A stretch of DNA of 44,550 nt from sequence record PZ445417.1; one strand, written 5' to 3'. The number at the start of each line of letters is the position of its first letter. Positions within the stretch are counted from its first letter, which is position 1. The DNA comes from a phage. This document shows, one piece after another, positions 1,397 to 38,887 of the stretch. The translations under genes were made by a program, and so were the position numbers. The notes below the pieces were generated by a model. The model had not been told where the DNA came from, did no database searches, and was given only the letters and a program-made list of their open reading frames with translations.

Positions 1397-2917
1397 ATGA
1401 CCGTTAACGTTGACAACCAGCACCCCCTCTATGCGCGCATCGCGCCAGAGTGGAAAATGATCCGGGATTGTGTAGCAGGGGAGCGCGCTGTGAAGGCGTG
1501 CGGCCCTTTGTACCTGCCGCATCCCGCCAGTGGTGACAATACTGACCCGAAAGCACGGGCGCGGTATAAGGCGTACAAGCAACGCGCTGTATTCCTGAAC
1601 GCCACCGCCCGCACACTTAACGCGCTGTTAGGCGTTGCCTTTGCTAAACCGGTAAGTCTGGACCTTTCCGGGGCGATGGCTGACCTGATTGACGACGTAG
1701 ACGGCAGCGGTATGCCGCTGCCGCAACTCCTGCGCGGTGCTATGTCGGAAGTGCTGCAATCGGGCCGCGCTGGCTTTATGGTGGACTACGACCGCCAGGC
1801 TAACTTTGATGAACTGGGTAACGTAGTGCCGCAGACAGCCGCTGAGATGGCCGCACACCGCCCGCTTATCCGCCTGTATACGGCTGAGCAGATCATCAAC
1901 TGGCGGCAGACCCACGGCGTCGACACGCTAATCGTGCTGAAGGAGACGGACGAAATCAGCACCGAAGACCCGGACGACTTCGCAAACCACGAGGTAACGA
2001 TCTGGACTGAGCTTCGCATGATTAACGGTGTGGCGCATGGTCGCCGCTGGTATTACAACGCGGACACGTCCGAGGTGCAAATGGACTTGCCGCGCGGCTT
2101 CACCCGAACCGACCTTGTACCACTGGTGGATGCCGCCGGTAACGCGCTTACTCAACTGCCATTTTGCTGGTGTGGTGCTGTGGACAACAACGCGACGCCG
2201 GACGCCGCACCGCTGGCGGATATTGCATCCATCAACATTAAGCACTACAACGCCGAAGCAGACGTCGCCGAGATTGCGCACATTGTGGGCCAACCTACAC
2301 TCATTGCGACGGGGCTAACCCAATCATGGGCTGATAAAAACCTGAAGGGTGGCATCGCGCTAGGCGCGACTAAGGGCGTTATCCTGGGTCAGAACATGGA
2401 CGCTAAACTGCTTCAGGCTGAGGAGAGAAACCTGTCAGTTGCGCTGTGTGAGCGACGCGAGTTGCAAATGGCTAAACTTGGCGCGGCCCTGGTCGAGAAG
2501 GGAACCGCACCTAAGACGGCAACTGAAGCGGCCTACGATGCGCAGACTGATAACAGTATCCTGTCACTGATTGCCGGTAACGTTGAGAAGGCTTTCAACC
2601 GTGCGCTGCAAATAGTCAAGCTGTTCACTGGTGACACCGCCGACCAGCGTGTGACGCTGAATAAGTTCTACACCGAGATCACGGTTGACGCACAGCTTAT
2701 GACCGCGATGATGGCAGGTGTGCAGACCGGTACTGTCCGACTGGCTGACTTCATCAAGTGGATGATGGCCCAGGGCGTTATTGATGACTCGCAAACCGTC
2801 GAGCAGGTGGAAGACGAGTTGCGAAATCAGAACCCATTGCCTCAAATGTCCCCGGATGCGGTAGAATCTACCGAAGAAGACCCGGACAAGGTAGCGGACG
2901 ATGGCGAGAACAATTAA
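1397..2917 (+). CDS. portal protein
   Basis: 506-aa ORF, ATG with AAGGAAA RBS, directly after terL. Size, position and acidic C-terminus are typical of portal proteins. Confidence 0.7.
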   Translation: MTVNVDNQHPLYARIAPEWKMIRDCVAGERAVKACGPLYLPHPASGDNTDPKARARYKAYKQRAVFLNATARTLNALLGVAFAKPVSLDLSGAMADLIDDVDGSGMPLPQLLRGAMSEVLQSGRAGFMVDYDRQANFDELGNVVPQTAAEMAAHRPLIRLYTAEQIINWRQTHGVDTLIVLKETDEISTEDPDDFANHEVTIWTELRMINGVAHGRRWYYNADTSEVQMDLPRGFTRTDLVPLVDAAGNALTQLPFCWCGAVDNNATPDAAPLADIASINIKHYNAEADVAEIAHIVGQPTLIATGLTQSWADKNLKGGIALGATKGVILGQNMDAKLLQAEERNLSVALCERRELQMAKLGAALVEKGTAPKTATEAAYDAQTDNSILSLIAGNVEKAFNRALQIVKLFTGDTADQRVTLNKFYTEITVDAQLMTAMMAGVQTGTVRLADFIKWMMAQGVIDDSQTVEQVEDELRNQNPLPQMSPDAVESTEEDPDKVADDGENN

Positions 2918-4004
2918 TCAATATATGGCGGACCGCATGATCCGCCGTCACATCTTCACCCAGCGCCTGAGCAATGACCAGGCGCGGAGGGTGTTGGCTA
3001 TGTGGGAGAAGTTCCGGCCCACGTTACTGGGTAAGCTGACCGAGTTACTTGATGGCAAAAAGTCCATGAACAACAAGGCACTTACCACTTTGTTAGCGCA
3101 ACTTGACAAGACCGTTAAAACAGAACTGCGCACCGAGTTTAAGGCGTTGGCTGAAAGCCTTCAGGAGTTCGCCGACACGGAGGCTGATTATCTCACCGAC
3201 ACATTAACGGCAGCGATCCAGCCGGTGGTCGCCGTACCGGCGGTCGAGGTGGTTGGCGTAGTGACCGGTGCGCAGATCGCAGCGACGGCAATGAAAAACC
3301 CGTTCCTGGGTAATACGATGATGCAATGGCCTGACTCACTTTCTGAGTGGACAAGGACGCAGATCGGCAATCAGGTGCGCGCCGGATTCATCCAGGGCAA
3401 GCCAACGACGGAAATTATCGCGGACGTGAGGCGCGCGCTAGGTGGTCGTAGTGCGCAAGCCATCTCAAGCGTTGTTAAGTCCGCAGTCAACCACTATGCG
3501 GCGACCGCCCGCGAACTAATGGTAAAAGCAAATGACGATATTCTCGAAGGTCGCCAATGGTTATCTACATTGGACACGCATACTTCTCCCATGTGCCAGC
3601 TACGCGATCGCCTGTTTTATCCGGTTGATGCTACTCCCGACACCAAAGGAAAGCGCGGCGGGAAAGTGGTGGCGGGATCACAATATGGCGCTGGTCCGGG
3701 CAAGCTACATTATTGCTGCCGTTCGACTGAGACGTGGAAAGTCAAAGGTATGGAAGACTGGCCCAGTGGTAAGCGTCCGGCACTGAAGGCTGACGCGGGT
3801 CGGTTGCTGAGTGAGCAGGCGGACGCGCAGACTGATTTCTTCTCATGGGTGCAGCGCCAGCCGCGCCATATCCTGGAAGAATTATACGGGGTGCAACGCG
3901 CCGACCAGATTATGCGCGGTGTGAAAGTGCCTAAGATGTTCACCGACACCGGCGAACTAATGACTATTGCACAGCTTAAAAACCGGGGGTTGTGGCGTGA
4001 TTAA
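2901..4004 (+). CDS. head morphogenesis protein (Mu gpF / SPP1 gp7-like minor head protein)
   Basis: 367-aa ORF overlapping the portal 3' end. Assigned by position after portal and by overall resemblance recalled from memory, not by search. Confidence 0.55.
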   Translation: MARTINQYMADRMIRRHIFTQRLSNDQARRVLAMWEKFRPTLLGKLTELLDGKKSMNNKALTTLLAQLDKTVKTELRTEFKALAESLQEFADTEADYLTDTLTAAIQPVVAVPAVEVVGVVTGAQIAATAMKNPFLGNTMMQWPDSLSEWTRTQIGNQVRAGFIQGKPTTEIIADVRRALGGRSAQAISSVVKSAVNHYAATARELMVKANDDILEGRQWLSTLDTHTSPMCQLRDRLFYPVDATPDTKGKRGGKVVAGSQYGAGPGKLHYCCRSTETWKVKGMEDWPSGKRPALKADAGRLLSEQADAQTDFFSWVQRQPRHILEELYGVQRADQIMRGVKVPKMFTDTGELMTIAQLKNRGLWRD

Positions 4005-29829: not shown

Positions 29830-32121
29830 TTACTTCCTGTACCTGTACATAATGTCGCCTTCGGCGGCAAGTGGGAAGCCTTTCGCCCAAATAGGCAGGT
29901 CGCACATCAGCGCGCAAAGCTCCTCTGTCGTGTAGTCGTCGGTGTCCGGCACTTCTGTGATCAATTCATCATGCACCGATAGAACGATTTCATAGCCCGC
30001 AGCTTCAACGCCAGGCATTGACCAGGCGAGAATATCACGGCACAACGCCTGTACGATGTTCTCCGTCAGTTTGCCGCCGTAGGTGTACTGGAATCCCCAC
30101 TGGCGCGTCGTCTGATTCTCGCCCTGGTATTTGATGCGGGTGCTGGTGCGCTTCTTGCCGGTGTCTTCGTCAATCTCGGTCGTGACAGACAGCGCGATGC
30201 CTGGGTAGCTCATGATTCGCCCAGACGGCAACTCAATTTTCAACCACCACCCCGCGGCGTTCGGGTCGTCGCGCTCCTCGTCAAAGGTTGGGTCGTGCTT
30301 CGCCTTCGTGCGCACAATCTTGAGCGCTTTCCTACCATCCGGGCGAACGTTCGCGCCAGCCCAGTATGCTTTGCCCGGATTGCGGATTGCACACAACACC
30401 GCGTCCTCAAGCTCGGCCCAAAAGGCTACCGTCTTCGGGTGAGCCTCACGCCACATACGTTTGATTGCGTCACAAGTCAGCCATACGTTTTTCGGCAGTA
30501 TGTATGTTGGGCGCTCGTCTTTCTTGCCAGGCTTCGGCGGGCGCTTCGCTTCGTTAATGCGAGCGTACTCATAACCGCGTTTAGCCGCCGCCCAAATGTG
30601 ATCGGGGAATGTACCCTTCATGACGTCAGCCATAGTGTATAGGTCGAGGCCCAGGTTTTTAGCGAACTGCAAGAACGCCGCGACGCCGCCGCCGTAGCCC
30701 AGCCCCAATTCGCACGCCTTACCAATCTGGCGTAAGTCCTTGCGGTTGGCTTTAATGTATTCCGGGTCAAGACCGAACATCTTACCGGCAGTCTCACAAT
30801 AAATATCGCGTCCGGCCCTAAACACCATTAGCGCGGTTTTCTCGCCAGCGATCCAGGCAAGGCCACGCCCTTCCACGTTGGAGTAGTCCGCTACGACAAA
30901 CTTCTTACCCTTTGCAGGGATAATGCACCCGCGAACGGTCGAGGCCGTTAGCTTCGATATGTCATACGCCCAGTGTGCGGTCCCGCGTAACAGGGAGTTG
31001 ATGCCGTTGGTGAGCATGTGCGATCGGACCCAAAACGAGACGTCGCTTTCACCCTCGCGGCGTTTAATCTTCCCTTCGTGGTCGTCGCTGTACTCGCCAC
31101 GCGCCAGGTTTTGAGGTTGAAAGCCTTTACCGGCCCAGCGTAGCGTGCGCTTTGCCCCACCATACTGAAGACAACCACGGCGGCGACCATCTGCGGATAA
31201 GCCGTTAACTAGCGGATTGTACTTAGTCGATGCCGTTGATGACGCTCCGAGGCGCATTTCGATAAGCGCTTTGCCTTCGTCGGGGAAGTCAGGGTCTTCA
31301 AGCAGGTCGTTAAGTGTGGATTTCTGCGCGTTGTGGATCGTGAACGCCGGGGCGAGGTCGCGCAGCGCTGGCAGGAAGTCATTGCCGGTCAGCTTACCGC
31401 CGAAGCGCTCCCAGGCTTCTTCCTTCAATTCTTCCTTATGCGCCTGCACCGCTTTGATCGCGGCGTTCGCCAGGTCAACGTCCACATAGAAGCCGCGGTC
31501 GTTAATCAACTGGTCGATAAGCAGGATTTCATCTTCCTTCGGAGTATTGCCCCAGTCCGGTATGCGCCAATAGACTTCACGCATTGCGATAATATCCAGC
31601 GCGGCATAGCGCAGAAATTTGGCCCACTCTTCTGGGTGAGTCTCGCGAGTGTAGCGGCGGATTTTGTAGGTCTTAGGGGTAGGCTTACAGAATCGTTTAA
31701 TCAGCGCCTTGCCTGCCTTATCCTTCGCGTGCTCTGCGTCAACTCCCAGCACCTGGCACTGCATATCGAGACTACCCGGCAACGCGTGTCGAAAGGCCAT
31801 AATCATGGTGTCTTCGATCTGGCACACTGGCAGGTCAATACCCCACTTCTCGCGAATAACCAGGCGGTCAAACAGGAGGCCGTTAGCCATCACGATTTTT
31901 GCTTTCTTGCGGGATACCCGGCGGAGCGCCTTGCGCAGTTCACGCGGCATTGTGGGGGACTCGGTGCAATCCCACGTTTGCACGCGGCCTTCATCGATGG
32001 CGTATGTGCAAATCATAATCTCGGTAGTTGGGTGTTCTGCGTAGGCGTACGCACCAACTTTCTTCAGGTCTACCCCGCTAAATGTTTCGGTGTCGAGAAA
32101 CAGGCGTTCGAAGTCTTTCAT
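29830..32121 (-). CDS. DNA polymerase, family A, with 3'-5' exonuclease domain
   Basis: 763 aa. Exo I motif FLDTETFSG; Pol motif A VADYSNVEGR; motif B RQIGKACELGLGYGGG; motif C SVHDEL. GAGGA RBS. Confidence 0.85.
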   Translation of the reverse strand: MKDFERLFLDTETFSGVDLKKVGAYAYAEHPTTEIMICTYAIDEGRVQTWDCTESPTMPRELRKALRRVSRKKAKIVMANGLLFDRLVIREKWGIDLPVCQIEDTMIMAFRHALPGSLDMQCQVLGVDAEHAKDKAGKALIKRFCKPTPKTYKIRRYTRETHPEEWAKFLRYAALDIIAMREVYWRIPDWGNTPKEDEILLIDQLINDRGFYVDVDLANAAIKAVQAHKEELKEEAWERFGGKLTGNDFLPALRDLAPAFTIHNAQKSTLNDLLEDPDFPDEGKALIEMRLGASSTASTKYNPLVNGLSADGRRRGCLQYGGAKRTLRWAGKGFQPQNLARGEYSDDHEGKIKRREGESDVSFWVRSHMLTNGINSLLRGTAHWAYDISKLTASTVRGCIIPAKGKKFVVADYSNVEGRGLAWIAGEKTALMVFRAGRDIYCETAGKMFGLDPEYIKANRKDLRQIGKACELGLGYGGGVAAFLQFAKNLGLDLYTMADVMKGTFPDHIWAAAKRGYEYARINEAKRPPKPGKKDERPTYILPKNVWLTCDAIKRMWREAHPKTVAFWAELEDAVLCAIRNPGKAYWAGANVRPDGRKALKIVRTKAKHDPTFDEERDDPNAAGWWLKIELPSGRIMSYPGIALSVTTEIDEDTGKKRTSTRIKYQGENQTTRQWGFQYTYGGKLTENIVQALCRDILAWSMPGVEAAGYEIVLSVHDELITEVPDTDDYTTEELCALMCDLPIWAKGFPLAAEGDIMYRYRK

Positions 32122-32346: not shown

Positions 32347-33132
32347 TTAACGGCGGCGACGTTTACGTGGCGCTTCGTCTTCGTCGTCTTCGTCCTCATC
32401 TTCGTCATCACGCGACTTGCGACGTTTGCGAGGTTTTTCATCTTCCTCATCGTCGTCGTCATCGCGGCGCTTGGATTTCTTGGACTTGCGCGGCTTGTCA
32501 TCCTCGTCATCGTCATCACGACGTTTTGACTTCTTAGCCTTACGCGGGCTTTCATCTTCGTCATCGTCGCCCAGGTCTTCGTCGGAACATGAAGACCCGC
32601 CACCTCCGAAGGCTTCGCCGTCCTCACGGAATCGCAGACCCAGCAAGCCAGCACCGAGTCCCTTGCCGTTGGTATTGTTCCATGCCCAAATATCAAGGGA
32701 CACGTTGCAATAACAACCGGAGTAGATCTCCTGGCCTTCAATCTCGTCGCCGTCGATGGTCAGACCTTGTTCAGTCTGCTTCTCGCCGAGTGACGTTTGA
32801 ATGATTGGTTGTTTGAACGATTTGGCGTTGATATACAACATGCCTTCGAATTCTTCGGTTACTTCATCGCGCTCGTCGCCGTCGCGAACTGCACATTCCT
32901 TAGAATCCTGGGCGTAGTGGCGGTCCATCCACTTATCGGCATTCTTCTCGGATTTCAGCTTGTCGGTGAGCACTGCGCGTGCTGCCGCTTCCACTTTGTC
33001 CACCTGCGGATCTTCTTTATCCAGAAGAATCACGGCACGGTATGCCGGTTTTTGTCCATCCTGTTTAGGGGTATCACGTTCCCAAATTTTCAGGAAGCAT
33101 ACGCGCACATTTTTCAGGTTGACTTTAGCCAT
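32347..33132 (-). CDS. single-strand DNA-binding protein-like (T7 gp2.5-type) with charged tandem-repeat C-terminal tail
   Basis: 261 aa from the ATG at 33132 (GAGGA RBS). N-terminus MAKVNLKNVRVCF and an FGGGG motif before the tail, as in gp2.5-type SSBs. The last ~70 aa are alternating acidic and basic blocks, mirrored by ~60-bp DNA tandem repeats. Confidence 0.5.
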   Translation of the reverse strand: MAKVNLKNVRVCFLKIWERDTPKQDGQKPAYRAVILLDKEDPQVDKVEAAARAVLTDKLKSEKNADKWMDRHYAQDSKECAVRDGDERDEVTEEFEGMLYINAKSFKQPIIQTSLGEKQTEQGLTIDGDEIEGQEIYSGCYCNVSLDIWAWNNTNGKGLGAGLLGLRFREDGEAFGGGGSSCSDEDLGDDDEDESPRKAKKSKRRDDDDEDDKPRKSKKSKRRDDDDDEEDEKPRKRRKSRDDEDEDEDDEDEAPRKRRRR

Positions 33133-33222
33133 TTTCCAATTCCTCATTTTCACATGTATCGGGGTTATTGGAAGCCACCCCGTTCGGCTTGGTTGCTAAT
33201 TTACTTGGTTGCGCCTAAGCGG

Positions 33223-33465
33223 TCAAGCATTTTCATTAAAAAGATTTCTGGTAACGTAGTTGGTAGCGTTCTCGATCCAGCTTAACGGCGGGCGGTCGCC
33301 ATGTCTCGCGATCCACGCCACGGCAATGGTGCTGTAACCATCGTCCAGCCATTGGGTTGGATGGCGAATCATCCAGGCCACCATTAACACGCCTTGCACA
33401 CAATGCAGGATAAAGCCCAGCGCGCCGATAACAAACATCAATAAGATTGCGAATACTTTATTCAT
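33223..33465 (-). CDS. small membrane protein (80 aa)
   Basis: Two predicted hydrophobic helices (FAILLMFVIGALGFIL, GVLMVAWMI). Confidence 0.4.
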   Translation of the reverse strand: MNKVFAILLMFVIGALGFILHCVQGVLMVAWMIRHPTQWLDDGYSTIAVAWIARHGDRPPLSWIENATNYVTRNLFNENA

Positions 33466-34888
33466 TGCTTAAGTCCTCGTCAGTAGCTACAGACCACGCA
33501 GGGCGCGGGTCGTCGATGGGTGCTAATACCGGTTTAGCCGGTGCGCGCGTGATTTTATCACACAACTTGGCCCACACTTTCGGCTTCTCGTCCTTCAATA
33601 CCTTCTCGGCGTCGGTAGGACTGAGTAATGTTTCTTTGTACATCACGTCGCGCTTGATCCGGGCCTTCGTGAAGATTTCAATCACTTCGCTTTCGTCCGC
33701 CCACTTGCGGATCCCTTCCTTACCGGCAACCATCTTGAGGCCCAGCGCTTCGCCATCGCCAGCCATAACCGCCTTGAATACCGCGGACTCGATAGCCTTG
33801 ATGTGCTGGCGCATTGCGTCTAGACCTTCATATGCCTTGCGCAGTTCCGCGGCGGTCATAGCGCCGGGGGCCGCTTCTTTCTTGCCACGCTTCGCACGTC
33901 GTGCCGCTTTGCGGGCTTCGCGGGCCATATTGCGGTCGTGATTGGCGCATTCTTCCTCTGTCGCAATACTCACGTCGTCGCCCAGGTCTTCGTCTGTTGC
34001 CGTTGGAGGGGTCATCGTGTCGATTGCGGCCTTAGCGCGTGCACTACACTGATCCGCAAATCGGCACCACTGACACGCATCAACGCTCGGTCGGAAGTCG
34101 GCACGGGTGAGTCCTTTCTTACCTCGGGCGTACGCTTCCAGGGCGGAGATAGCACGCTTGGACGCAAACTTCGCGAATATCTCCAGGGCTTCTACCGAAA
34201 TATCCCACTCCGACGCCCCGCCGCAATACGGCTGGAAGATAACAAGGCGCACGGTCGTGATGTCGTACATGGATTGCAGCTTGCGCAGCAGGCCGAGCGC
34301 GTACAGCATAAGCTGTTTGTTTTCTTTCGCCTCGACCTTATGCCGCCCCGTCTTCAGGTCGCCAACAATCAGCATGTACGTGCCGTCGGTCTTCTTCATG
34401 ACCATGACCATATCCGCAGTGCCGAACGTCTTAACCCGGTTGCCGTCGATCTCGAAGCCTGAGTGAAGGACGCGGGTCAGATCGGCGCGCATCTCAAGCT
34501 GAACAAACTCCGCCACTTCGAGGAGCGGTCGCCAGTGGTCGATGTACGCGTCGCACTGTTTCACCATGTCGTCGTTGACCAGTACGCCGCCTTTCGGTGC
34601 TTTCGGGTGGGCCTTTACCGGCCCCTTACCTTCGTTCTCGACGTAGCACCCTTTGTACGTCTTAGCGGTTATCAGCTTCTCACCGGCGATAATACGGTTG
34701 AGAACGACTTCAGATACGGTGTGCATACTCGTACCGTTAATCGCCGCTTGCCCGGATTCGTTCGGGATATCTTTTTCCACCACCAGGGCGGCAGGGCAAC
34801 CCATCCATTTTTTAGCACCGGATGGCCCGAGTAATGAATGTTCCGTATTACTACCGGATTGCGTTTTACGTTTTGGTTTAATCGCCAT
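33458..34888 (-). CDS. Cas4/RecB-like exonuclease (PD-(D/E)xK with Fe-S cysteines)
   Basis: 476 aa. N-terminal Cys (WMGCPA) plus C-terminal cluster C-x2-C-x5-C (CQWCRFADQC) as in Cas4/AddB-type nucleases. Adjacent to the SSB-like gene. Confidence 0.6.
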   Translation of the reverse strand: MAIKPKRKTQSGSNTEHSLLGPSGAKKWMGCPAALVVEKDIPNESGQAAINGTSMHTVSEVVLNRIIAGEKLITAKTYKGCYVENEGKGPVKAHPKAPKGGVLVNDDMVKQCDAYIDHWRPLLEVAEFVQLEMRADLTRVLHSGFEIDGNRVKTFGTADMVMVMKKTDGTYMLIVGDLKTGRHKVEAKENKQLMLYALGLLRKLQSMYDITTVRLVIFQPYCGGASEWDISVEALEIFAKFASKRAISALEAYARGKKGLTRADFRPSVDACQWCRFADQCSARAKAAIDTMTPPTATDEDLGDDVSIATEEECANHDRNMAREARKAARRAKRGKKEAAPGAMTAAELRKAYEGLDAMRQHIKAIESAVFKAVMAGDGEALGLKMVAGKEGIRKWADESEVIEIFTKARIKRDVMYKETLLSPTDAEKVLKDEKPKVWAKLCDKITRAPAKPVLAPIDDPRPAWSVATDEDLSNE

Positions 34889-35069
34889 TATTCCACCCGT
34901 GTAAACTGGACAATTACATATTTGCAGATATTAGCCAAGCCCGCTTTTTCGACACGTCTGTGCACTTCACGCTGCGCATCGGTCCAGCACGTCTAGGCGT
35001 CCTTGTTAATAACAATAAAAGAAGTGTGGTCGTTTAATTCGTGGCATGTTGCCAGCACGAAGAATTTCA

Positions 35070-35321
35070 TTATTTCGTCTCCCAGCGGTCAATCGTTCTT
35101 GCTTCGGATGCAACTGCAAAGCGAACATATTCCAGATTGGAGTCCGCCCAAATATAAAAGTCGGGGTTAGTAAAGGTGGTGCGCTTAATTTGCGCGGGAG
35201 TATTGCGGCGTTTATCAATTACGGCAACGCGTGACTGAAAGCTGCCGATGCGTTCGAATAGCCAATAGTACGGGCGCTGGTCGCGGGAGTCCACCGCCTC
35301 GATTAGCGTGAAGCGTGCCAT
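35070..35321 (-). CDS. hypothetical protein (83 aa)
   Basis: ATG with GAGGA RBS, immediately after a terminator hairpin. Confidence 0.45.
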   Translation of the reverse strand: MARFTLIEAVDSRDQRPYYWLFERIGSFQSRVAVIDKRRNTPAQIKRTTFTNPDFYIWADSNLEYVRFAVASEARTIDRWETK

Positions 35322-35332
35322 TGTCTCGTCCT

Positions 35333-35361
35333 CTAAAAAGAGGCCCGCAGATTAGCGGGCC
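35333..35361 (-). terminator. rho-independent terminator (minus strand)
   Basis: GGCCCGC-agatta-GCGGGCC hairpin followed on the minus strand by CUUUUU, after the stop of 35370-35879. Confidence 0.55.
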
Positions 35362-35369
35362 GGAATATA

Positions 35370-35879
35370 TTAATCTTCCAGTTCGAAATAGGTTTCGACG
35401 ATTTCTTTTAAATCTTTGTGGAAGTCTTCGACGTCGTCATCTTCCAGCTTGGCGATTGATTTGATTTCGAACGCGTCCAGCAGGTCGTCGAATTCGTCGT
35501 TCGCGTCGTCGTCGTCACCGCCGGCAATAATCGCGGCATACTGTTTGATTTCGTCGCGCATCTCTGCCAGCGGATCGGCATCTTTCTTACCTTTGCCTTT
35601 CGCCGGTGCTTTCTTAGCCTTAGCCGGTTTTTCGTCTTCGGCATCTTCGTCGTCATCTTCTACGACTTCTTTTTTGGCCTTACCTTTAGCCGGTGCTTTT
35701 TTAGTTTTCGCTGGTGCTTCGTCTTCAGCGTCGTCATCTTCTACGACTTCTTTTTTGGCCTTAGACGGCTTTTTATCTTCCTGCTTACCAACGGCAGCGC
35801 CAACGGTTTCATAATGTTTAGCGATGATTTCCAGTGCTACTACGCCGCGAGTGATCAGGTTTACGATTTGCTCAAACAT
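35370..35879 (-). CDS. acidic repeat protein (169 aa), first gene of the leftward early operon
   Basis: ATG at 35879 (GGAGA RBS). Internal ~22-aa tandem repeat KAKKEVVEDDDxEDExPAKxKKAPAKGK and a strongly acidic C-terminus, mirrored by a DNA tandem repeat around 35647-35763. Confidence 0.55.
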   Translation of the reverse strand: MFEQIVNLITRGVVALEIIAKHYETVGAAVGKQEDKKPSKAKKEVVEDDDAEDEAPAKTKKAPAKGKAKKEVVEDDDEDAEDEKPAKAKKAPAKGKGKKDADPLAEMRDEIKQYAAIIAGGDDDDANDEFDDLLDAFEIKSIAKLEDDDVEDFHKDLKEIVETYFELED

Positions 35880-36082
35880 GGTATATCTCCGATTGGTTAA
35901 GTTTAGGTGTCGACAGTTAACTTCGTCGGTGGCCTTAACATAGTGCCTGGTTGCGCGTTCTCCCTTTCGGGTAGTGGACCAGGTTATATAATCACGGTTG
36001 GGAATCCTGACACTTCGATCCGGCCCCTGCGTTGCCCCTCTCCAGTTTGCGTCCTGCATCCTGTCGACGGGGTGAATAATAG

Positions 36083-36115
36083 ATTGGTTGCAGGATAGGT
36101 GTCAACAACTAATTT
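36083..36115 (+). promoter_or_regulatory. rightward early promoter P1 (ATTGGTTGCAG motif)
   Basis: ATTGGTTGCAG (-35 TTGCAG), 16 bp, TAATTT. Confidence 0.45.
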
Positions 36116-36116
36116 C

Positions 36117-36175
36117 AAAAAAAAAAGCGCCGAAGCAAAATGCGACGGCGCTAACCAATAAGAGACAATGAGACG
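36117..36175 (-). ncRNA. candidate ~58-nt antisense small RNA
   Basis: Minus-strand promoter (plus coordinates 36181-36209): TTGAAA, 17 bp, TGT-AATAAT. Minus-strand terminator GCGCCG...CGGCGC plus U10 at 36117-36151. No ORF. Antisense to the leader of P1 transcripts. Confidence 0.3.
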
Positions 36176-36222
36176 GGAGTATTATTACACGCGTGCGCGC
36201 CCGTTTCAATATTCCAAAGGAG

Positions 36223-36251
36223 TTGACACCCCGCGGTTTTAGGTGTAGTTT
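36223..36251 (+). promoter_or_regulatory. rightward early promoter P2
   Basis: TTGACA, 17 bp, TAGTTT, about 30 nt upstream of the RBS of the HTH gene. Confidence 0.55.
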
Positions 36252-36282
36252 CGTTGGTCATTAACCAACCGGAGACAGAACA

Positions 36283-36612
36283 ATGAATATCGACGACGCA
36301 ATCGAAATGTTAACTAAGACTGTTTGCAGTGAGACAAGCCGGTCCTGGGCATATACCGATGCCGTGGGGGCGGTGTTATTCGAAATCGAACGTCTGCGCC
36401 GTGTCGAAAAAGAATTGCGCGCGAAGCTGGAATTACTCAACGGTACAGCAGCCAGCAAGCTGCAAAAGCACAATGAAGAAATGGAAGAATACAAAAAACA
36501 GGTTATCCGTTTGCGCGATGAGGGAAAGTCATGGGCGATGATTGCCGAGTTAACCGGAATTAATCAGAGCACAGTGCGCTCCTGGGTACGCAATAATAAA
36601 ACTTCTAAGTAA
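36283..36612 (+). CDS. HTH DNA-binding protein (putative regulator or replication accessory protein)
   Basis: 109 aa, GGAGA RBS. C-terminal helix-turn-helix KSWAMIAELTGINQSTVRSWV; coiled-coil middle part. Confidence 0.55.
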   Translation: MNIDDAIEMLTKTVCSETSRSWAYTDAVGAVLFEIERLRRVEKELRAKLELLNGTAASKLQKHNEEMEEYKKQVIRLRDEGKSWAMIAELTGINQSTVRSWVRNNKTSK

Positions 36613-36616
36613 GGCA

Positions 36617-38887
36617 ATGGCAATGAGCTTAATTAAATTCGCGGTAACAAGACCCGCTAAAAAAGGCGAAAAAGCCAGGGCGGAAAACTTCCAGATGACC
36701 ACCGACGAGTTTTTCGAATTTATCAACGATGCTAAAGAAATATCCTCGGTGCATATCAACAAGACGGAAGATAAAGCCGAGTATGCGCGCCGCAAGCGTA
36801 AGGCCGATGGCATTGTGGCTTATACCAGTGATGGGCTGCGCCGCAAGACCAGTGCGGTGGATCGCTCGATCCTGTTCTTCGATATTGACCGTACCGACAC
36901 CCGCACCCTGCGCCGCTGCCGTAAGGCTTTCATCGACGCAGGACTGGAACATGTATTTCACACCACAACCGGCGACCGCCACCCGCTGAAAGGAGGCACG
37001 CGTTGCGCTCGTTTCCTGGTGCTCACCGATAAGCCTGTACCTGCTGAAGACCTGGGCCGCGTCCAGTATGCACTATTACACCAACTGGGCCTGTCAGATG
37101 TGGACTTCGATGATTGTACGAAAGACACAAACCGCCTTATGTACCTGCCTCACCAGCAATCGGTTATTAAGTGTCACTACGGCAAACGTGCCCGCGTCCG
37201 TCGTCTGCTTCGCCTGGCTGATAAGCTGGGAGTGGAAAAAGAGGAAGTACGCCGCGAACTAACCCAGGGCGATGACGGCGTGGCTGACGGTATTCTGGAT
37301 TGGTGCTTCCAGGCGGGATTCGAACCGCTGTCGTCCGGGCGTGGCTATGAAGTGCCGTGCCCTAACGAACACCTGCACAGCGGCGAAGGGTCCACCGCTA
37401 TCATGGTTAAGGATGGAGAGATCCGTTTCAAGTGTATGCACACCGGCAACGAGTGTTGCTCGGAACTGAACAGACACCAGCACCTGGCGCTACGTCTTAT
37501 CGGGATACCGGACCACCTGAACGTCGAACCACACAACATGTCTCGTAAGCAAATCGCCGCCATCCTTCCGGGACTGGACGACGAGGAAGTCGAATCGTGC
37601 TATGAACATATCGTTGATGCGGTCGGTGACGGCGACGAGTACGGCGGATGTACGGACGCAGACCTGGACAACGAGCCGGTTGCACTGTTCAGCAAGCACG
37701 ACCCGATCATCGAGGGGTTGATTAACTTTAAATCGACCTGGTACATGGCTGGCGAGTCGAACATCGGTAAATCTTTCTACGTGCTGGGGCAGATGGGTGC
37801 GATTGCCGCGGGCATTCCGTTTGGCGGTGCGAAGGTCGTCCAGTCTCATTGCTTCTATTTCGACGCGGAAGGTGGCGAAGCCTCTAACCAGCGTAAGGAG
37901 GCATTGCAGATCAAATATGAGCACGACCTGGACAAGCTGCACATTATAGACCTGCAATCACGCGGCTGGGATATCACCAGCAAATCCGGCTTGCGTGAAG
38001 TTATCAGCTTCATCAACCGCACCGCTAACGGCGAACCGGTGGGCCTGGTGGCGTTCGACTCACTCAACCAGACTGTTGCGCTGCGGTCCGCCGATGCTAA
38101 ACCGTTCGACGAGAACAACGCCAGCGATATGGGCGAAGTGGTCAAGGCGCTGAAGGCCATCGCAGAAAATACAGGCGGCAGTGCGGGCGTCATCCACCAC
38201 CCGGCGAAGGGTGCAAACGGCAGTAGATCCCCCCGCGGGTCCGGCGCGCTGCATGGTGCTGTCGATTCCGCGTTCTTCCTGGAGCAACCGGACGACAATC
38301 AGCCGGGCCAATTGAACCTGTATCACGAAAAAGCACGTAACGGCATCAAGCAAGCGCCGCGTGGCTTCGTCCTGCTCAAGTGCAAGGTTAAGGTGGATCT
38401 CCGCAAGTCCGAGGCGTTCGAATCGCACCAGTCCACCAGCACCGGGCCGGACTTCGGCGATGTGGTTGCCGGTTGGGACGTCAAGCCAATTGCCTCCACG
38501 CCACGCGACGAGACTCTTTACCTCGTACCGGTCGCCCTGGCGCCGTTCGCAATCGAACAGGCAAAGGCAGCGGGCAAAGCAGCAGTTAAGGAAGAGAACA
38601 CCGCCGGACCGCGCAACGAAAAAGAGAAAGTGCTTTATGCGGCACTGGAAAAACTGATGGAAGATAACCCGGACCATACCGGATTCAGTAAATCGGCGAT
38701 TGTCCGCCAGGCGGGATTGGCAAAAGGTGGCACATCGACGAAGGCAATCGACGATATGGTCGAGCGCGGCGTACTCGGTTTTTATACAGATCCGCACACT
38801 GGGGCCATCTATGGGTCGTCGAATATCGTCATTAAAACAAGTATACCCATCACGCTTTCGGCGACAGATGACGACCTGAAAGATTAA
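36617..38887 (+). CDS. DNA primase/helicase (prim-pol-like N-terminal domain plus RecA-like ATPase)
   Basis: 756 aa. N-terminal acidic motif LFFDIDR and HVFHTTTG (archaeo-eukaryotic primase-like), a Cys/His cluster, and Walker A GESNIGKS with Walker B-like VAFDSLNQ. Confidence 0.7.
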   Translation: MAMSLIKFAVTRPAKKGEKARAENFQMTTDEFFEFINDAKEISSVHINKTEDKAEYARRKRKADGIVAYTSDGLRRKTSAVDRSILFFDIDRTDTRTLRRCRKAFIDAGLEHVFHTTTGDRHPLKGGTRCARFLVLTDKPVPAEDLGRVQYALLHQLGLSDVDFDDCTKDTNRLMYLPHQQSVIKCHYGKRARVRRLLRLADKLGVEKEEVRRELTQGDDGVADGILDWCFQAGFEPLSSGRGYEVPCPNEHLHSGEGSTAIMVKDGEIRFKCMHTGNECCSELNRHQHLALRLIGIPDHLNVEPHNMSRKQIAAILPGLDDEEVESCYEHIVDAVGDGDEYGGCTDADLDNEPVALFSKHDPIIEGLINFKSTWYMAGESNIGKSFYVLGQMGAIAAGIPFGGAKVVQSHCFYFDAEGGEASNQRKEALQIKYEHDLDKLHIIDLQSRGWDITSKSGLREVISFINRTANGEPVGLVAFDSLNQTVALRSADAKPFDENNASDMGEVVKALKAIAENTGGSAGVIHHPAKGANGSRSPRGSGALHGAVDSAFFLEQPDDNQPGQLNLYHEKARNGIKQAPRGFVLLKCKVKVDLRKSEAFESHQSTSTGPDFGDVVAGWDVKPIASTPRDETLYLVPVALAPFAIEQAKAAGKAAVKEENTAGPRNEKEKVLYAALEKLMEDNPDHTGFSKSAIVRQAGLAKGGTSTKAIDDMVERGVLGFYTDPHTGAIYGSSNIVIKTSIPITLSATDDDLKD

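Follow-up and report, generated by a model that had tools for sequence, protein, structure and literature searches.

The window analysed here, the whole 44,550-nucleotide stretch of phage DNA in record PZ445417.1, is essentially an entire Dhillonvirus-like siphophage genome of ~44.5 kb: its region 35000-36700 is 90-95% identical to the corresponding part of more than 150 Dhillonvirus genomes, including those of Shigella phage EP23 and the Escherichia phages bob, KarlBarth and vB_EcoS-EE09 (hereinafter EE09). Our subject is a leftward gene at 35370..35879 (minus strand; stop codon 35370-35372 included) coding for a 169-aa protein of the family phrog_3127, which is the orthologue of EE09 CDS56, bob_51 and gp48 of phage Bas14 (TheodorHerzl). 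The protein has a mass of 18.7 kDa and an isoelectric point of 4.48; with 27 K, 27 D and 23 E, and 50 Asp/Glu against 29 Lys/Arg, its net charge is -21. Translation starts at the ATG at 35879, and a Shine-Dalgarno element, GGAGA, read from the sequence, lies 6 nt 5′ of it (35886..35890, minus strand). Some GenBank records annotate the gene with 229-232 aa by means of a longer in-frame start (229 aa from the ATG at 36059), and EE09_56 likewise carries an over-long start. On comparative grounds this 60-residue N-terminal over-extension is an artefact, because the upstream frame has stop codons or a 143-nt indel in related phages, because its variable sites are spread evenly over the codon positions (55/54/57), and because every distant homologue begins at the MFEQ/MLEK methionine. 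Within the C-terminal domain, the codon differences among 19 Dhillonvirus orthologues comprise 193 synonymous versus 56 non-synonymous changes; the gene is thus under purifying selection, with its N-terminal helix and C-terminal domain nearly invariant. An earlier description of the window, made from the letters alone and here called the sequence-only reading, had picked out this open reading frame (ORF), which is confirmed as real.

The gene is the first member of a leftward array that continues with two small ORFs, a DUF2800 PD-(D/E)XK end-resection nuclease (33458..34888, minus strand; Pfam DUF2800, E 8.7e-67), a small ORF, an Enc34/T7 gp2.5-type single-stranded DNA-binding and annealing protein (SSB; 32347..33153, minus strand; Pfam Enc34_ssDNA-bd, E 2.1e-31), another small ORF, a family A DNA polymerase (29830..32121, minus strand; Pfam DNA_pol_A) and a SNF2 helicase. 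Divergent from it, an AAA_25 helicase-primase (36617..38887, plus strand) is preceded by a 109-aa helix-turn-helix (HTH) protein (36283-36612). Of the related loci, 44 distinct ones have flanks long enough to judge (41 from IMG/VR and 3 Logan contigs), and in every one of them the genes for the nuclease, SSB and polymerase come after the phrog_3127 gene; three others break off short of where the nuclease would be. The Jerseyvirus/Kagunavirus group (Salmonella phages SETP3 and SE2 and K1-type coliphages) differs in having the helicase-primase gene upstream on the same strand, with the phrog_3127 gene ~60 nt from that of the nuclease; therefore, the phrog_3127 gene is embedded within an operon in those phages. 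Judging from these arrangements, being first after a divergent promoter is a trait of the Dhillonvirus lineage, and being placed just upstream of the nuclease is the general condition.

The trio duf2800-gp2.5-polA has been recognised as a three-gene module in phages of Firmicutes and Gram-negatives, and the published description makes no mention of the gene upstream of it (PMC8093625). The window carries exactly those three genes, and the phrog_3127 gene, although absent from the published list, is their constant upstream neighbour, which suggests that it is a fourth recurrent component of the module. A scan of 185,579 bacterial and archaeal species (one genome each) retrieved one locus only, which is a Jersey-like phage contig that has the same module; hence, the family is essentially confined to virulent phages with this module. 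That match lies on a 19-kb scaffold of Taishania pollutisoli (NZ_JACVEL010000022.1), which bears a Jersey/Kaguna-like replication module with a polymerase 62% identical to that of the window; in an assembly from Bacteroidota, it probably reflects contaminating phage DNA or a phage that is carried along rather than a prophage.

Structure prediction with AlphaFold2 (AF2), a check that the sequence-only reading had proposed, yields a layout of a structured N-terminus, disordered charged repeats and an acidic folded C-terminus, which bears out the structured-looking N-terminus and the strongly acidic C-terminus described in that reading. The charge is partitioned accordingly: residues 1-30 have a net charge of -1, basic and acidic side chains balance at 21 each in residues 31-100 (net 0), and residues 101-169 have 26 acidic side chains to 6 basic ones (net -20). 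The first segment, MFEQIVNLITRGVVALEIIAKHYETVGAAV (codons 1-30; 35790..35879, minus strand), is seen in alignments as an amphipathic helix, which spans residues 2-30 in the AF2 model; R11, A15 and E17 are invariant family-wide, and its hydrophobic residues recur in a heptad pattern. Its hydrophobic moment of 0.46 is typical of an amphipathic helix, and its Kyte-Doolittle mean over 19 residues peaks at 1.32, short of the customary threshold of 1.6. With this value, and with R11 and E17 lying within the helix, we rejected a TolA/TonB-like membrane anchor, the label borne by a distant BFVD match (rank 31, E 0.28).

The second segment (codons 31-100; 35580..35789, minus strand) is a disordered polyampholyte linker in which basic blocks (KKAPAKGKAKK) alternate with acidic ones (EVVEDDDAEDE), and residues 26-100 have predicted local distance difference test (pLDDT) scores <50 in the AF2 model of the full-length protein. 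Within it, a unit of 81 nt (27 aa) is repeated in tandem, with 2.0 copies (35596..35763, minus strand; Tandem Repeats Finder score 219, 82% matching), namely KAKKEVVEDDDAEDEAPAKTKKAPAKG and KAKKEVVEDDDEDAEDEKPAKAKKAPAKG, each unit consisting of one acidic and one basic block. The two copies noted in the sequence-only reading are therefore confirmed, but the unit is 27-28 aa rather than the ~22 aa given there. The linker is hypervariable: among 97 close orthologue clusters, its length ranges from 15 to 79 aa, and it has no acidic block in 3, one in 39, two in 53 and three in 2 of them. In alignments of the wider family it spans 15-95 aa without conserved sequence, the usual order being an acidic and then a basic block, and the natural variants P0097, P0085 and P0093 make do with linkers of ~15-24 aa that are devoid of an acidic block. 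This variation in block count, together with the repeat-free variants, indicates that the tandem repeat is a spacer of variable copy number. We also considered an HMGA- or histone H1-like tail and set it aside: K/A/P-rich blocks are present, yet the linker is net neutral, the protein as a whole has a charge of -21, and there is no RGRP motif.

The third segment (codons 101-169; 35373..35579, minus strand) is the conserved, family-defining part of the protein and is predicted to form an acidic three-helix bundle. AF2 places three helices here with low confidence in the full-length protein; with the deeper alignment of the 115-aa natural variant P0097, the domain attains a pLDDT of ~80-86, with the N-terminal helix left undocked. 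Its consensus, LRxEI...GDxD...FDDLLxxYxVxxVxKLxDxDVxxFHxxLxxI..KY, is dominated by hydrophobic and aromatic positions belonging to both core and surface (F130, L133, L134, F153, H154 and L157). Across the family the domain has a charge of anywhere between -4 and -21, and whole proteins have a net charge of only -4 to -8 in Streptococcus phage P9, APSE-7, BU1-1 and Siskin. An EF-hand-like reading of the GGDDDDAND loop was discarded upon inspection, as the canonical ligand positions do not fit.

The phrog_3127 profile matches the protein along its full length (residues 1-169 on profile positions 1-178; E 7.3e-53), and it also matches all 35 of the diverse homologues tested. Cross-hits through the C-terminal domain join phrog_3127 with phrog_18562, 408, 3709, 5053 and 7721, all of which are labelled as of unknown function and amount to bookkeeping families with no assigned role. 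A word-indexed search gave 106 clusters, nearly all from 44-45-kb contigs, and an exhaustive profile search gave ~60 representatives at 50% identity, all of them small (~115-212 aa). Sequence searches of Pfam, NCBIfam, PADLOC and PDB gave either no match or low-complexity noise (BUD22, androgen receptor), and no fusion to a known domain family emerged from further alignment-based database searches, in which either close relatives crowded the results or little came up. A fold search with the better model, that of P0097, recovered generic three-helix bundles only; the C-terminal domain (CTD) of lambda Red-beta and lambda Orf are among them, which we regard as a lead rather than a finding.

To look beyond the close relatives, we sampled distant loci by hand, choosing them solely by a match to the DUF2800 nuclease, and inspected the gene immediately upstream. 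In the aphid-symbiont phage APSE-7, Bacillus phage Wes44, Streptococcus phage P9, Corynebacterium phage StAB, Elizabethkingia phage TCUEAP1, Bacteroides phage BU1-1, Paenibacillus phage Bob and Blautia phage NatCom, this gene codes for a three-part protein with a structured N-terminus, a low-complexity linker rich in P/E/K/A/T and a ~55-residue C-terminus with the same hydrophobic pattern; it overlaps or abuts the start of the nuclease gene in APSE-7, StAB, P9, TCUEAP1, Paenibacillus Bob and Blautia. In the chi-like phage Siskin the matching gene is one position further upstream. The layout there repeats that of the window, with divergent HTH and primase genes, then the first gene, then an annotated terminator. 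We then scanned a hidden Markov model (HMM) built from the C-terminal domain of the phrog_3127 family alone against all 763 six-frame ORFs of 11 DUF2800-selected loci. Each of its five best matches was the ORF that immediately precedes the nuclease gene: Wes44 (E 1.8e-5, with four domain copies), P9 (1.8e-4), APSE-7 (4.3e-4), Paenibacillus Bob (5.2e-4) and Blautia (0.17). A profile-profile alignment of the family C-terminal domain with the positional analogues has an hhalign probability of 93.6% (E 2.2e-7). Taken together, these comparisons identify, at the level of sequence, a widespread domain, encoded one to four times over in the gene next upstream of the DUF2800 nuclease, in phages that differ greatly from one another; the N-terminal module joined to it is lineage-specific, the linker free in both length and sequence, and the acidity variable.

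The copy number of the domain deserves separate mention. Some distant family members (P0112, P0115 and P0117) bear two C-terminal domains, and gp33 of Bacillus phage Wes44 (positions 2636-3514 of the contig examined, L060) has four in tandem; in all four proteins the copies are separated by acidic low-complexity linkers, which suggests that multivalency is a selected property of this protein class. One might accordingly view the protein as a multivalent scaffold or DNA-architectural factor, with the blocky linker binding DNA or driving condensates and with oligomers of the N-terminal helix or tandem C-terminal domains concentrating the replication and recombination proteins. Such a role would suit a protein that is abundant (see below), has a linker predicted to be disordered and K/A/P-rich in the manner of histone H1, and has distant relatives that repeat the acidic-then-basic block before the C-terminal domain, with P0142, P0139, P0120 and P0113 even displaying AT-hook-like RGRGR/TRGK motifs. 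However, the near-linkerless natural variants mean that the repeat cannot be essential, and the strongly negative net charge, combined with a linker that is net neutral or acidic, argues against DNA binding; moreover, the protein of the window has no canonical RGRP AT-hook, and the proposal is drawn from composition alone. We therefore regard a scaffold of this kind as quite improbable.

The gene is flanked by expression signals. A sigma-70-type promoter, TTGACA-18-TATTAT (36076..36105, minus strand; 11/12 matches), which is conserved in related phages, lies ~190 nt upstream of the gene and implies a leader of about the same length (35880-36069). We found no sign that this leader is structured: its fold is as stable as that of shuffled sequence (z -0.01), and it matched no Rfam family. 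Directly 3′ of the stop codon, and ahead of the next gene (start 35321), there is an intrinsic terminator, GGCCCGC-TAATCT-GCGGGCC followed by TCTTTTT (35333..35361, minus strand; hairpin 35361..35342), which is kept in the Dhillonvirus loci and some distant relatives but not in the Jersey/Kaguna-like phages; the sequence-only reading had passed it over. The loop of this terminator occurs in two reverse-complement forms, TAATCT and AGATTA, on an identical stem (among the window and the equivalent sites in L007 and L017), and it looks as if the palindrome as a whole may have flipped in some lineages. These signals predict early and high expression of the gene with attenuated read-through into the replication genes; given the host-type consensus promoter, it is very likely transcribed early. 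The sequence-only reading had placed the gene first after a divergent promoter region, which holds for the leftward side, where the promoter is evident, and less clearly for the rightward one.

Published proteomics of EE09, a Dhillonvirus that is 94% identical, bears on the amount and whereabouts of the protein. The shotgun analysis of infected cells picked up only four phage proteins, among them the orthologue CDS56, which was detected together with the gp2.5-type SSB (CDS61); CDS56 was absent among the 24 proteins of cell-free phage lysates (PMC10673088), and the supplement of that study gives it no peptide-level data. On this evidence it is an abundant protein of the infected cell and not a structural one. 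The early and abundant expression surmised in the sequence-only reading is thus borne out, by the promoter and by these data, respectively. The virion or prohead role implied by the GenBank labels "prohead core protein" and "late protein" is contradicted, as the orthologue is found in cells and not in lysates and the gene is situated in a replication module. The label "13.88 kDa late protein" traces to UniProt Q9T1Z8 of Salmonella phage MB78, and our search of the accessible literature found no paper supporting it.

An abundant acidic protein whose gene comes first after a strong host-type promoter would be in keeping with a DNA mimic of the Ocr/ArdA type that blocks type I restriction or another defence at the start of infection, as the sequence-only reading had suggested, and the hypervariable repeat region could be seen as the mark of an arms race. 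Nevertheless, the comparative evidence points elsewhere. The gene is a syntenic, conserved core element of the replication module across Dhillonvirus, Jerseyvirus, Kagunavirus and others rather than a shuffled accessory gene, and in the Jersey/Kaguna-like phages it is not even at the start of the operon. Its folded domains are invariant and only the linker varies, the opposite of what is expected of an interface evolving against host defences, and its acidity is not conserved. No similarity in sequence or fold to Ocr, ArdA or lambda Gam was found, nor any match among the PADLOC defence-protein models. Finally, the BASEL study describes Dhillonvirus phages as comparatively sensitive to both type I and type II restriction-modification (PMC8594841). 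We consequently hold an anti-restriction function to be very improbable. Instead, the context points toward a replication accessory protein, the very outcome that the sequence-only reading had named as contrary to its proposal.

A different kind of decoy has somewhat more to recommend it. Lambda Gam and T7 gp5.9 are dimeric DNA-mimic inhibitors, and T7 gene 5.9 holds a corresponding position near recombination genes. Like these two and Ocr, the phrog_3127 protein is small, acidic, early, abundant and helical; like Gam, it is encoded in a cluster with phage recombination genes, and the order in the window (acidic protein, nuclease, annealase) echoes lambda gam-bet-exo. It could thus be a functional analogue of Gam or gp5.9, an abundant acidic decoy directed against a host end nuclease (RecBCD, or AddAB in Gram-positives) or another host DNA-binding protein, that protects linear phage DNA and recombination intermediates. 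This would fit the charge of -20 packed into the 69 residues of the C-terminal domain, the net negative charge of all family members (-6 to -23), the restriction of the family to virulent phages, and a coiled-coil-like N-terminal helix that could dimerise the protein; further, no other RecBCD inhibitor is evident nearby, the neighbour annotated as "Gam" being an HTH protein. Unlike Gam, gp5.9 and Ocr, however, it has a long disordered polyampholyte linker, and its acidity varies through the family, falling to -4 in the C-terminal domain and to between -4 and -8 overall in several remote homologues. A DNA mimic fits less well because its function would need a conserved array of negative charges, and the conserved positions here form a mostly hydrophobic and aromatic set rather than a pattern of carboxylates. 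Moreover, in hosts that differ in their end-processing enzymes, the domain is linked to the nuclease of the phage itself, by position and sometimes also by overlapping frames. Homology to lambda Gam is not detected by hhalign (probability 0.14%). All told, we deem a Gam-like decoy unlikely, although it is the chief competitor of the reading proposed below.

The nuclease itself has lately come to attention in another setting. Its orthologue in the Dhillonvirus Bas14 (TheodorHerzl), Bas14_0045, is an AdnA/RecB-like nuclease that on its own cleaves retron multicopy single-stranded DNA in vitro; it triggers retron type IX and can be dispensed with, since truncation escapers are viable, and what it does in the life cycle of the phage is stated to be unknown (bioRxiv 10.64898/2026.07.14.737667). 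As an orthologue of this trigger is present in the window, the window phage should be sensed by retron type IX. The phrog_3127 orthologue of Bas14, gp48 (P0057 in our set), is encoded three genes upstream of the nuclease, and none of the escaper mutations mapped to it (bioRxiv 10.64898/2026.07.14.737667). By eye, the cysteines of the nuclease encoded in the window follow a Cas4/AddB-like pattern, a single N-terminal Cys and a later CxxCx5C, and its C-terminus is extended by a long charged stretch.

Based on these observations, we propose that the phrog_3127 protein is an abundant, non-enzymatic accessory subunit, a tether or adaptor, of a recombination-dependent replication module comprising the DUF2800 AdnA/RecB-like nuclease, the gp2.5-type SSB/annealase and the family A polymerase; we would put the probability of this at roughly 40%. 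The adaptor is favoured because the folded C-terminal domain and the position beside the nuclease, SSB and polymerase genes stay constant while the acidity varies. In such a scheme, the C-terminal domain would dock on a partner universal to the module, for which the nuclease is the likeliest candidate, with the SSB or the polymerase as alternatives; the lineage-specific N-terminal helix may self-associate or bind a second component, and the floppy charged linker between them would tether and coordinate end resection with annealing and replication, or else govern the nuclease. The promoter, strong ribosome-binding site and terminator would set the level of the protein above that of the enzymes encoded downstream. 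Given its high abundance and the recurrent multivalency, whether through tandem C-terminal domains or a coiled-coil-like N-terminal helix, the protein seems more like a scaffold than a catalytic cofactor.

As a working model, the nearest parallels are the recombination-mediator three-helix bundles of lambda, the Red-beta CTD (PDB 6M9K) and Orf/NinB (PDB 1PC6). In Red-beta, the C-terminal three-helix bundle is connected with the separate, oligomerising part of the protein through a flexible linker; it docks on lambda exonuclease, binds the SSB tail as well, and has Orf as a structural relative (PMC6393309). As with Red-beta and Orf, the phrog_3127 gene lies in all loci beside genes for a PD-(D/E)XK exonuclease and an annealase, the binding of its product being putative, and the operation of its linker may by analogy be likened to that of lambda Orf, which mediates loading on SSB-coated DNA. 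Unlike in Red-beta, the domain is strongly acidic and resides on a small protein of its own rather than on the annealase. The likeness does not extend to detectable homology: hhalign gives a probability of 0.1% against the Red-beta CTD with the family profile and the wider profile alike, and the match of the predicted fold is no better than that to generic or designed three-helix bundles.

Several considerations weigh against the adaptor. Its physical interaction with the proteins of the module is putative, and the HMM at the sensitivity used found no match in the upstream ORF of 6 of the 11 position-selected loci. In the window, two small genes and a terminator stand between the phrog_3127 gene and that of the nuclease. 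As the Bas14 nuclease is active alone and its truncation mutants are viable, the protein cannot be a cofactor that an essential enzyme requires. Lastly, high abundance and strong acidity would suit a titrating inhibitor as well as a scaffold. More speculatively, the protein could be the founding example of a widespread but unrecognised class of multivalent disordered hubs, in which one to four helical domains on charged tethers, or oligomers formed by the N-terminal helix, assemble nuclease, annealase and polymerase into a factory, possibly a condensate, and might shield or gate the retron-sensed nuclease; we think this rather unlikely. The remaining probability belongs to some other explanation.

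The region between the divergent operons contains further elements. The 109-aa gene opposite the phrog_3127 gene (36283-36612, plus strand) is called "DNA recombination nuclease inhibitor gamma" or "transposase" in many GenBank records. Only HTH models match its product (HTH_23, Sigma70_r4_2 and HTH_28, over residues 65-106), and distant relatives have an HTH_3 protein in its place; the Gam label looks like a propagated misannotation, and the product is more likely to be a regulator or an origin-binding protein. A candidate small RNA unit occupies 36115-36209 (minus strand): it has a promoter, TTGAAA-17-AATAAT with a TG extension (36209..36181), and, ~25 nt past it, a hairpin, AGCGCCG...CGGCGCU, followed by U10 (free energy -16.5, z -2.5). 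The candidate is conserved in other Dhillonviruses, and in L018 both partners of two stem pairs differ (U:A and C:G, each in place of G:C). Its only match in Rfam is a sub-threshold one to ncS54, and the EE09 record annotates a 36-aa ORF at the site.

Within the 5′ leader of the phrog_3127 gene, a 143-nt segment (35917-36059) is bracketed by an inverted repeat, GTCGACAG and CTGTCGAC (35909-35916 and 36061-36068). It is missing in some Dhillonviruses, L007, L009 and L016 having ~12 nt in its stead, and the leader of L018 is also short. Its predicted fold is no more stable than that of shuffled sequence, and the segment may represent a small insert, either mobile or regulatory; it is this segment that creates the spurious 60-codon N-terminal extension of several annotations.

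At the least, these results correct a set of database labels, namely "late protein" and "prohead core protein", the 60-residue over-extension and the false "Gam" next door. The wider significance stems from the fact that duf2800-gp2.5-polA is among the commonest replication and recombination cassettes in the tailed phages of both Gram-negative and Gram-positive bacteria. Were a fourth component indeed to dock on, tether or restrain this machinery, it would be of potential use in recombineering based on gp2.5 and DUF2800. It would also offer a handle on how end resection is coupled to annealing and replication in these phages, and it may explain how the nuclease is kept from harming the phage or alerting its host.

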